A stretch of 64,000 bases of DNA, from NCBI GenBank assembly GCA_944372425.1, contig CALVZC010000003.1, positions 6,570 through 70,569 of the forward strand. The letters run 5' to 3'. Source of the DNA: an uncultured Bacilli bacterium (lineage in GTDB: Bacteria > Bacillota_I > Bacilli_A > RF39 > UBA660). How positions within the stretch are numbered: position 1 is the first letter of the stretch; every line of letters begins with the position of its first letter. The notes beneath the pieces are model-generated. The model did not search any database. It saw only the letters and a list, made by a program, of their open reading frames with translations, and had not been told where the DNA came from. The translations under genes and the position numbers were made by a program. Below, piece by piece: positions 51,452 through 53,642 of the stretch.

Positions 51452-53002
51452 TTATTTTTCTTGATTTATATAAGTCAATAAATCAAGTGCTGTGGCAGCT
51501 TTATCATATTTTTCAACATTATTTATCCAATTTTTTGTATCAGTAACCATACTTTGCATTGTATACAATTGATTTGCTCGATCTCTATTTGAATAGCGAA
51601 TTCCATAATTGTAAGTTCTACTTTCATCATAAAAGCTCTTATTTAACTCAACTAGCATATTTTTTGCTTCACTACAATCATATGTTCCGTCTAATACACC
51701 ATTTCTTACCTCAAATATTGCAGTTACAACCGCAGTATTACGTGTTTTGAAGTCTAATTCTGTATTATTAACTGTAGTCATCAAATTATCAAAAGACTCA
51801 CTAGAATTTAACACTTCATCAGGTAATGCATTTGTATTTGAATCTACATCTATCCATTGATCTTGATTGATCATTTTATCTATATTGCTGCAAAAATTTT
51901 TATCACTTTTGAATATCTCATCACCAGCGAAAACAATATCACCTTCATAACTACTATTCATGCCATTTAAATTATAATACAATTTGCTATATAGAGAATT
52001 TTCACCATCACCTGATACAATCAATGCATCTTTATTTCTTTCTTCTAAAGTTATATTACCAGATAAATACGCATCATTTAATAACTTAGAATATTGAGTT
52101 CCGTTGGCAAGAACTTCTTTAGCATTAGAATTTTTAAAGAAATCACTAGCACGTTCTTTATCTGCAAAATCAACTTTACTTACAACAGTTAATTCACTAT
52201 CTGAATAATCGGAAATATTTTTCTTCAATTGCTCTATTTCTTCAACTTTAGTAACTATATTATTTGAACTAATATCAGGGTTAATTGCTGTATTGTTAGC
52301 ATAAGCACCAATTAAACTACCCGCAATATCATTACTAAATTTATTTGCTAATTGATTAATACCTAAACCTTTATAATTGGTTATACTATTAAATGAAATA
52401 GACGAATTTTGAACCAAAAAATTATTAGAAAATTGATTATGGGAACCAATAGCACCACCATTTGTCATATTTCCGATAATTCCCAACGAAATACCACTCA
52501 TGCCATTTTTTATTGCATCTAACAACGTCTCACCAGTTAAATTTAGATTGCTAATTTCTCTATTCAAACTATCGATAGTGCTTTGATCATTTTCTTCAAC
52601 AATTTTTTTCGTTTTTCCCGTTTTTGCATCTTTTTCGTACCTATAACTTCTTGGAGTTAAATTTTTTCCAATCGCATACTTGGCTATTATTTCGTCAATA
52701 ATTTTTTTTACTTCTTTAGCTTTTGAAATAACTCCTAGTAATTCACTTCCTACACTATTATTTAATCTAACTATGGCATCCATTATTAACTGTAATGCAG
52801 CTTTAACAGATTTAGAATTATCATCATTCCATCCAGCAATTATACCGTTTAATGCACTTTGATATAAATTATATATACCATCTAAATCATTTTGAATATT
52901 TTGAGCATTTGTTTCCAATGTAGATAATGAATTACCTACGGCATCATTAAATTTAGATAATCTAGGACTCAAAGAATACATAAACGCCGAAGAATTTGCC
53001 AT
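51452..53002 (-). CDS. large T7SS effector candidate: WXG/LXG-like helical N-terminus plus an unknown ~350-aa C-terminal region
   Basis: The N-terminus has IIAGWNDDNSK (a W-x-x-D turn) and SELLGVI (an L-x-G). Two small WXG-like genes lie immediately upstream and are coupled to it. ATG 53002 follows an AAGGAAG SD; the track start is the TTG at 53023. Confidence 0.55.
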   Translation of the reverse strand: MANSSAFMYSLSPRLSKFNDAVGNSLSTLETNAQNIQNDLDGIYNLYQSALNGIIAGWNDDNSKSVKAALQLIMDAIVRLNNSVGSELLGVISKAKEVKKIIDEIIAKYAIGKNLTPRSYRYEKDAKTGKTKKIVEENDQSTIDSLNREISNLNLTGETLLDAIKNGMSGISLGIIGNMTNGGAIGSHNQFSNNFLVQNSSISFNSITNYKGLGINQLANKFSNDIAGSLIGAYANNTAINPDISSNNIVTKVEEIEQLKKNISDYSDSELTVVSKVDFADKERASDFFKNSNAKEVLANGTQYSKLLNDAYLSGNITLEERNKDALIVSGDGENSLYSKLYYNLNGMNSSYEGDIVFAGDEIFKSDKNFCSNIDKMINQDQWIDVDSNTNALPDEVLNSSESFDNLMTTVNNTELDFKTRNTAVVTAIFEVRNGVLDGTYDCSEAKNMLVELNKSFYDESRTYNYGIRYSNRDRANQLYTMQSMVTDTKNWINNVEKYDKAATALDLLTYINQEK

Positions 53003-53019
53003 TAAAATCGCTTCCTTTC

Positions 53020-53349
53020 TCAACTGCCATTTATACGTAAACCTTTATTATCATTAGCTTCACTAGCTACTGAATCGTCAAAAGTACAATAATTATTTAT
53101 AACATTAACCAAAAAATCTACATATACTTTATTTTGTATATTAATATTATCAAAACATGTAATAAAATTTTTAATTGAAGAATCCATTATATCACTATCA
53201 TTGCCTTGCCAATAAGTATTCATCTTATTAGTTTTACTTTTTACATTAGCAAGTAAATTACTAATATTCTGCATTTCATTTTCCAGTGAACTTAAATTAG
53301 CTAAAAATTCACTTCTAGATATTTTTAACATATTATTTCCCATATTCAC
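53020..53349 (-). CDS. WXG100-like small helical protein (Lap-like effector partner candidate)
   Basis: 109 aa with MNTYWQGNDSD centrally. The gene overlaps the upstream gene by 4 nt and abuts the effector gene. Confidence 0.65.
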   Translation of the reverse strand: MNMGNNMLKISRSEFLANLSSLENEMQNISNLLANVKSKTNKMNTYWQGNDSDIMDSSIKNFITCFDNINIQNKVYVDFLVNVINNYCTFDDSVASEANDNKGLRINGS

Positions 53350-53642
53350 GCCTCTTTTATTGATTCATAATACTTAAAAAGTATATTACTGTATTTGCTA
53401 TGATACTTTAAAATTGATTTACCAAGAACTTCAATATATTTCCTTATTTCTTCTAAATTTTCTATATAGCTATTCAAATTTTCTATAAACTTTGTTGCAT
53501 CTATCCCCTGCCAACTATTTTCCAATTGATCTGAAATTGTTCTTATTTTGCTTATAATTCTTCCAAACTCATTAGCTTCTGAAACCAAATAATTGCCTAA
53601 TAAATTTATTTGAGTCAAATCTGCATTTACAAATACACCCAC
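53346..53642 (-). CDS. WXG100-like small helical protein (Lap-like effector partner candidate)
   Basis: 98 aa with LENSWQGIDATKF centrally. GTG start 8 nt after an AGGAGGTG SD. Confidence 0.65.
   Translation of the reverse strand: MGVFVNADLTQINLLGNYLVSEANEFGRIISKIRTISDQLENSWQGIDATKFIENLNSYIENLEEIRKYIEVLGKSILKYHSKYSNILFKYYESIKEA

Follow-up and report, generated by a model that had tools for sequence, protein, structure and literature searches.

A putative variable effector cassette beside essC in a reduced, type VIIb-like secretion locus from an uncultured gut Bacilli bacterium

The window analysed here is a stretch of 64,000 nucleotides (nt) from an uncultured Bacilli bacterium (GenBank assembly GCA_944372425.1, contig CALVZC010000003.1, positions 6,570 to 70,569 of the forward strand), in which a tight series of minus-strand genes extends from 48.6 to 60.9 kb. 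Within this series, three packed genes, confirmed as real open reading frames (ORFs), encode two small proteins, termed W1 and W2, and a large modular protein, termed the effector; the gene for the motor EssC lies 1.5 kb upstream of this module, and a conserved EsxA/EsxB pair is encoded downstream. The locus is interpreted, with slightly more than even confidence, as the variable effector cassette of a stripped-down system resembling secretion systems of type VIIb (T7SSb), carrying a cargo that would be inert in the cytoplasm of its producer. Two parts of this interpretation are graded separately: comparative sequence evidence indicates that the module is probably an exported substrate of a type VII secretion system (T7SS), and the inertness of the cargo, argued by analogy, is advanced tentatively, at somewhat less than an even chance.

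The principal evidence comes from a comparison with the essC loci of ten other species of the genus (11 species together with the window genome, G000). The order essC, 83-aa gene, p392-like gene, W1, W2, effector, esxA and esxB is kept in all ten sister species, so the three-ORF arrangement proposed in a preliminary description of this DNA is confirmed and is not a product of chance. In the same essC-adjacent slot, one family of N-terminal domains (N-domains) is joined to cargos that differ between species. The mean between-species identity is 0.73-0.78 for EssC, EsxA and EsxB (EssC 0.78) and 0.32-0.38 for p392, W1, W2 and the N-domain (p392 0.38), and this contrast at the sequence level marks p392, W1, W2 and the effector as a putative four-gene hypervariable cassette between conserved flanks. 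The EsxA/EsxB pair, whose members score 39.4 and 47.9 bits against WXG100, both over the Pfam cut-off, is 77-94% identical over most sister loci and 41-49% identical in G006. The features of the locus are as follows.

60018-60926, minus strand: 302-aa gene, upstream of essC
55160-59758, minus strand: EssC motor, 1532 aa (Pfam FtsK_SpoIIIE 4e-47, FHA 1e-14)
54916-55167, minus strand: 83-aa gene, after essC
53725-54903, minus strand: p392, a 392-aa helical repeat protein, putative fourth gene of the variable effector cassette
53346-53642, minus strand: W1, 98 aa, putative WXG100-superfamily partner with a central W44-Q-G46
53020-53343 (listed as 53020-53349), minus strand: W2, 107 aa, putative WXG100-superfamily partner with W-Q-G and Y-C-T-F-D
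51452-53023 as listed, minus strand: large effector ORF, stop codon at 51452-51454
52418-53002, minus strand: putative N-terminal targeting domain of the effector, residues 1-195
52253-52417, minus strand: Asn/Ser-rich disordered linker, residues 196-250
51455-52252, minus strand: orphan C-terminal cargo domain, predicted all-alpha, residues 251-516
51294-51451: gap of 158 bp before esxA
51003-51293 and 50661-50972 (together 50661-51293), minus strand: EsxA/EsxB WXG100 pair, 96 and 103 aa
49735-50583, minus strand: 282-aa membrane protein downstream of the esx pair, followed by genes for a C39-like protein of 362 aa and for an ABC transporter

The assignment of p392 follows from its distribution. 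Each of the ten sister loci has a homologue of 392-547 aa ahead of W1, and p392-like proteins of 262-393 aa precede three more W1-W2 pairs in the window genome; because such sets occur elsewhere in the genome, p392 is placed, on the basis of sequence, in the effector cassette and not in the secretion machine. Neither p392 (searched against Pfam and NCBIfam) nor the other p392-like proteins and effectors of the genome (searched against Pfam) matched any family. The three extra sets lie outside the window, at C11:24152-25952, C15:4472-7421 and C52:169-3875 of G000. The first is followed by a tRNA-like sequence and lacks an effector, the second by a 490-aa protein, and the third by a protein of 748 aa that contains an extended (Thr-Pro)n run and ends in a hydrophobic tail; the two large proteins are without the N-domain of the window effector.

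The modular character of the effector is most apparent in the relatives of its N-domain. When 1.84 billion cluster representatives were searched exhaustively with phmmer, 57 proteins (50%-identity clusters) of 350-1107 aa were found, nearly all of which align just to residues ~6-200, their C-termini being unrelated; these C-termini are mostly orphans, among which one Phage_lysozyme2, one NlpC/P60 and one esterase domain were recognised. Across the 11 species, a single N-domain family is combined with at least nine different C-termini in the same essC-adjacent slot, which is the polymorphic architecture of LXG-type effectors. As it is shared by at least 57 clusters with unrelated C-termini, the N-domain appears from sequence to behave like an LXG targeting domain. 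Among whole genomes it is restricted to this genus (14 of 41 relatives), and a search of the window genome revealed no second member of the family. The strongest signature of the family, [LF]-G-[IV]-x-G-N-M-x-x-G-G-x-L-G, occupies residues 173-186. In a sister locus (L026, G010:C4, 1901-3154) the effector is split, with a 197-aa ORF consisting of the N-domain only, then a 198-aa Gly/Ala-rich hydrophobic ORF, then a DUF4176 gene.

The AlphaFold2 model of the N-domain comprises a helix at residues 13-57, a turn at W58-N-D60, a helix at 61-112, a beta-hairpin at 119-136 and a helix at 140-169, with a mean predicted local distance difference test score (pLDDT) of 83-94 per 10-residue block across residues 11-190. 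The W-containing turn read in the preliminary description from the motif AGWNDD thus coincides with the predicted hairpin turn at residues 58-60. In the published structure of the LXG domain of TelA (8GMH), the helices are likewise split by two short antiparallel strands, and the leucine of the LxG motif lies in a turn matching the WxG turn of PPE41 (doi 10.1101/2023.07.21.550046); the likeness of the modelled N-domain to TelA-LXG is architectural only. A Foldseek search with the full effector model produced no PDB match with E<0.1, the weak match to PPE41 (4w4k_B) being found at rank 24 with a probability of 0.87, TMt 0.45 and E=1.5. The effector matched no Pfam or NCBIfam family, and both the N-domain profile and the whole-protein alignment yielded coiled-coil noise only when compared with PDB sequences.

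The W1 and W2 families were each assembled from 14 members, comprising the orthologues from the ten sister loci and the three paralogous pairs of the window genome. Taken alone, W1 scores 15.7 bits against WXG100, under the 27.3-bit cut-off, and W2 matches ESAT6_2 at 8e-8 and WXG100 at 0.005 (17.5 bits), both likewise under the cut-off. At the family level, WXG100 is matched at E<=0.1 by 14 of 14 W1 members (best 4.4e-10) and by 13 of 14 W2 members (best 7.4e-9), and the family profiles match solved structures over their full length, W1 to EsxA 3zbh (1.4e-7) and EsxB 4iyh (1.3e-6), and W2 to EsxA 3zbh (2.5e-5). The WxG motif is invariant in the W1 family (14/14), within W-x-G-x-D...F, and present in 12 of the 14 W2 members. 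With their length of ~100 aa, their central WxG and these profile matches, W1 and W2 are assigned to the WXG100 (PF06013) superfamily at the family level. An aligned Y-x-x-x-[D/E], which reads YCTFD in the window, occurs in every W2 member (14/14) about 40 residues past WxG, and is assigned from this pattern as a type VII export-arm motif. Profiles of Lap1 and Lap2 (DUF3130 and DUF3958), the families suggested earlier for the small partners, gave no match to W1, W2 or their families, and those of Lap3 and Lap4 gave sporadic sub-threshold matches only (YwqH-like DUF5082 in 1-2 of 14 members, DUF5344 in 2 of 14). Comparisons of the N-domain with the W1 and W2 profiles by hhalign were not significant, and the divergence of W1, W2 and the N-domain was only weakly correlated (rho 0.27-0.41) and was set aside as evidence of interaction.

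The family membership of the effector itself was also addressed, as the preliminary description had likened the locus to a Lap1-Lap2-LXG module. That likeness is retained for a T7SS module with two WXG-type partners and a modular effector, and is given up for membership of the LXG and Lap families. The effector gave no match to Pfam LXG (PF04740) at E<=1, its 57 relatives gave none at E<=0.001 and 28 N-domains gave none at E<=0.1, so the LXG label, which the description had itself made dependent on a profile hit, is abandoned. Alignment of the family profile with a canonical LXG protein (53.9 bits, from G225 of the same class) by hhalign gave a probability of 0.2%. The turn of the first hairpin reads W/x-x-D, not a conserved L-x-G, with D60 kept in 49/58 relatives and W58 in 20/58; the L-x-G formerly seen in ELLGV (residues 87-91) falls within the helix at 61-112, and its Gly is kept in just 15/58 relatives.

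Two candidate bridges to LXG were examined and rejected. Sub-threshold six-frame matches in sister genomes run across a stop codon and are located for the most part in the W2-like gene, and a 96.5% hhalign match to a 406-aa effector of G003 demonstrates a shared N-domain family only. As an observation in its own right, six-frame Pfam LXG matches are obtained on the W2-like partners of ~110 aa (LXG positions ~5-100), not on effectors, and reach 34.8 bits where the frame is read through a stop into the next gene; the cases are L009 (G006:C7), L010 (G003:C3) and small ORFs of G014, G016, G001 and G013. Such matches on W2-like genes could mislead automated LXG calls.

The likely starts of W1, W2 and the effector were set by the positions of ribosome-binding sites. 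W1 begins at GTG 53642, 8 nt past AGGAGG. For W2, ATG 53343, 7 nt past AAGAGG, is likelier (107 aa) than GTG 53349 (109 aa); as the stop codon of W1 (TGA) occupies 53346-53348, the two genes then abut, and the 4-nt overlap reported earlier disappears, the tight packing itself being upheld. The effector was listed from TTG 53023 (523 aa); the ribosome-binding site GAAAGGAAG, 8-9 nt ahead of ATG 53002, agrees with the 516-aa length given in the preliminary description. The statement that the next 158 bp are non-coding and are followed by the esx pair also holds, since a scan of 51294-51451 found no ORF of >=50 aa, nor was any terminator-like site found there. The gap contains a TTGACA-17-TACGAT match; promoter scans are uninformative here because promoter-like matches in AT-rich DNA occur at shuffle frequency (38 found, 37 expected from shuffles).

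The C-terminal part of the effector consists of a linker and a cargo domain of distinct character. Insertions and deletions between strains fall mainly in the linker (pLDDT <50), 71% of whose columns vary among homologues of 86-95% identity; an example is the 25-aa insertion LELSTDNSSDENNETASNKTIESL together with duplicated IAGSL units, and these changes suggest slippage-prone low-complexity DNA. The cargo (~265 aa), modelled alone by AlphaFold2 with 13 homologues, is predicted to be all-alpha, with a pLDDT of 83.7 and a predicted template modelling score of 0.85. Whether it would prove to be a recognisable family, a point that the preliminary description had left to a Foldseek search, can be answered in the negative for PDB and BFVD, in which no structural neighbour was found (best E 0.18 and 0.13, respectively; TM <=0.42); likewise, no match was found in Pfam, NCBIfam or PDB sequences. 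When the cargo profile was run against 5.8 billion proteins, the sole match was a fragment of this same protein. The homologues, which fall into four 50%-identity clusters, are confined to this genus (proteins P0007, P0011, P0017, P0018 and P0009). Across six sequences, 25-35% identical to the window copy, 27 cargo positions are invariant, with many Tyr and Asp among them and with motifs that include N-x-A-Y-L-x-G-x-I-T and G-x-L-D-G-T-Y. Its confident fold and its conservation across species at this level of identity establish the cargo as a real domain, and the model confidently predicts a soluble all-alpha orphan domain of new fold. Neither a hydrophobic segment nor a toxin fold nor a recognised catalytic motif was found in it.

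The presence of DUF4176, a chaperone family and not an immunity protein, tracks the cargo. The interval from the effector to esxA is occupied by a DUF4176 gene (PF13780, E=4e-26) in G002, G003, G005, G006, G010, G012, G014 and G016, and this slot is empty in all three carriers of the window's cargo (G000, G004 and G013), giving 8/8 for the alternative cargos and 0/3 for copies of the window's cargo; by tblastn, no DUF4176 was detected anywhere in the window genome. Where inspected, the alternative cargos include a hydrophobic Gly-rich module. According to the EssC tree, G004 groups with (G000, G013, G002) with support of 95/96; because G002 nests inside the clade carrying the window's cargo, this sequence-based tree suggests that G002 therefore exchanged its cargo and gained DUF4176 as a unit. 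It has been proposed in the literature that effectors with a middle domain need DUF4176 and that TelC, which acts extracellularly, does not.

LXG-type effectors are expected to have an adjacent cognate immunity gene. The earlier statement that none is adjacent here is borne out at the window and in G004 and G013, the two sisters with the same cargo; the other cargos have only DUF4176 next to them, and no obvious immunity gene was found at any examined locus of either cargo type, in the window or in the ten sisters. The 302-aa gene, which the preliminary description had put forward as a candidate, is rejected as cognate immunity because it is widespread in the genus regardless of cargo: 15/17 genus genomes carry it, usually just upstream of essC and with relatives 22-44% identical, and in G004, which has the window's cargo, a helix-turn-helix-type gene takes its slot. 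The protein has no Pfam or NCBIfam match and, from its position in these genomes, may be an unrecognised accessory of the secretion system.

A classical interbacterial toxin, with immunity encoded at an unlinked site or provided by the membrane-anchored 282-aa protein acting outside the cytoplasm in the manner of TipC, is an unlikely explanation, though one to be taken seriously. The 282-aa protein has an N-terminal transmembrane segment and a large external domain, and its gene occurs in 3/3 species with the cargo and 1/8 without it; however, this co-occurrence is phylogenetically confounded, as the four species that carry it together make up a single EssC clade, G002 retains the gene without the window's cargo, and the gene is part of a distinct operon of four genes that includes the C39-like peptidase and ABC transporter. 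Cell-wall hydrolases are among the cargos of the N-domain family, the cassette diverges rapidly, and strain variation within the cargo is concentrated in a surface loop of low model confidence (residues 441-485, in which 38% of columns vary), all of which would suit a toxin, yet no toxin fold or catalytic motif has been recognised in this cargo. Elsewhere in the window, the minus-strand segment 14343-14639 encodes a protein paralogous to the N-terminal membrane portion of the C39-like protein of 362 aa, with 58% identity across 99 residues.

If immunity were unneeded, the effector could instead be a non-toxic secreted or surface accessory of a minimal T7SS, acting for instance as an adhesin, as a contact or tip factor, or as a co-substrate on which secretion of the others depends. 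This explanation, which is considered improbable, accords with its position in a core-locus slot and retention without immunity gene or chaperone in three species, with the lack of another N-domain family member in the genome, with the absence of the usual membrane partners from the system, and with a soluble helical cargo rich in invariant Tyr and Asp and devoid of any recognised enzyme motif. However, unrelated cargos fill the same slot in eight sisters, as expected of exchangeable effectors and not of machine parts, and the cargo, at 25-35% identity between species, evolves far faster than EssC and the Esx proteins.

The setting of the locus is a small genome (a 1.38-Mb assembly of 25% G+C and 95% completeness, with the window on contig C3). 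Near-identical copies of the stretch occur in metagenomes of the chicken gut drawn from at least nine studies; no RNA runs were among the matching runs, and the DNA runs inform on habitat only. Scans of genome contigs recovered only two sister metagenome-assembled genomes (MAGs), and the sister contigs comprise one from an uncultured Bacilli MAG of a Hadza gut sample and one from an uncultured bacterium. A broader picture, speculative and of low probability, would be that of a small-genome gut Bacilli lineage that has a minimal T7SS, recognisable by EssC and WXG100 proteins alone, with its own previously undescribed targeting family and four-gene cassette, delivering a new-fold cargo that has neither chaperone nor immunity gene and that would be directed not against kin but against other species or the bird host, or would serve a non-toxic surface function.

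Returning to the interpretation of the locus as an effector cassette with a cargo inert in the cytoplasm, the proposed mechanism would run as follows. W1 and W2, as WXG100-type helical hairpins, would associate with the elongated helical N-domain in a bundle of several helices. On this bundle, a WxG turn and the YxxxD/E arm of W2 would be offered to the EssC ATPase, and the ATPase would export the whole complex, C-terminal cargo included. The mechanism would be that demonstrated for LXG-Lap complexes, but performed by families that are either unrelated to them or have diverged beyond recognition. The layout of the effector is of the TelC type, with the targeting domain and linker followed directly by the cargo, without DUF4176 and without a hydrophobic Gly-rich middle module, and the cargo may act outside the cytoplasm of the producer, on a cell surface or in the medium. 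It is proposed that, for a cargo inert in the cytoplasm, neither a chaperone nor an adjacent immunity gene would be kept.

Several observations weigh against this interpretation. EssA, EssB/YukC and EsaA/YueB were not recognised in the window genome (PF10140 is absent from the genus, with EssB missing across all of it, and TIGR03929, PF10661 and PF08817 are absent from the window genome), and the 83-aa protein, YukD-like in size and position only, matches neither the YukD Pfam model nor any Pfam or NCBIfam family. EssC is consequently the sole recognised component of a T7SSb core, and because EssA, EssB and EsaA went unrecognised and YukD unmatched, secretion in the T7SSb manner is itself something that we infer. 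No sequence or profile link was found between the N-domain and LXG or WXG100, and 8GMH was not among the top 50 Foldseek matches of the effector model, none of which was significant. In addition, TelC has an adjacent immunity gene, so its architecture alone does not explain the absence of one here; as an obvious immunity gene is missing from every sister locus, whatever its cargo type, this may be a genus-wide rather than a cargo-specific trait. The lack of any signal or family match tying the effector to secretion would also fit a non-secreted, cytoplasmic helical protein that is a mere neighbour of T7SS genes, but the synteny that is maintained in 11 species with essC and with the genes of the WXG100 partners and the Esx proteins, the polymorphic architecture and the association with DUF4176 in relatives render this explanation very improbable.

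Among known systems, the closest in kind are the LXG-Lap complexes of the Streptococcus intermedius T7SSb (TelC-LapC1-LapC2 and TelA-LapA3-LapA4, 8GMH), in which two small helical partner genes likewise lie directly upstream of a modular effector in the essC locus, the targeting domain is N-terminal and helical with two short strands between, the C-termini are interchangeable, and one partner bears an export-arm motif (FxxxD in Lap1, YxxxD/E in W2). In contrast to these complexes, the N-domain described here has no PF04740 similarity and its turn is W/x-x-D instead of L-x-G; the partners are of the WXG100 type and not of DUF3130, DUF3958, DUF5082 or DUF5344; every partner pair has a fourth gene of the cassette, of 262-547 aa, ahead of it; and no immunity gene is present. 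TelC, an LXG lipid II phosphatase of S. intermedius, shares the lack of a hydrophobic middle domain and of DUF4176, but it has the adjacent immunity gene tipC, and its toxin domain (5UKH) was not among the top 50 Foldseek PDB matches of the cargo. The DUF4176-dependent effectors of the Ltc/Lcp type (TelA, TelB, TelE and LXG1-CT3 of Streptococcus suis) have the same arrangement as that in the slot of eight sisters, in which the chaperone is swapped along with the cargo, whereas the window effector and its genome are without DUF4176. Several WXG100-like partners and a composite WxG and YxxxD/E signal on an elongated bundle are also features of Staphylococcus aureus EsaD with EsxB, EsxC and EsxD and of the mycobacterial PE/PPE proteins (T7SSa), the latter being also linked by the weak fold match of the effector model to PPE41; these systems nevertheless belong to other families, with unrelated cargo, and no EspG- or EsaE-type chaperone is present here.

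The kind of system is therefore known, and what is new is the targeting-domain family, the WXG100-type partners, the fourth cassette gene and the predicted cargo fold, as well as a natural contrast, at one locus, between cargos that have DUF4176 and cargos that lack it. LXG and Lap profiles underlie current searches for T7SS effectors, and the effectors, the partners and even the machinery of this whole genus escape them, although the genus appears to keep the same logic of a WxG and YxxxD/E bundle, a swappable cargo and a DUF4176 that moves with hydrophobic cargos. The cargo, confidently modelled as a new all-alpha fold, is a reasonable target for structural and toxicity studies, with no indication as yet of unusual biology, and the comparison within a single slot of cargos accompanied by a chaperone with a chaperone-free cargo bears on why some effectors need DUF4176.

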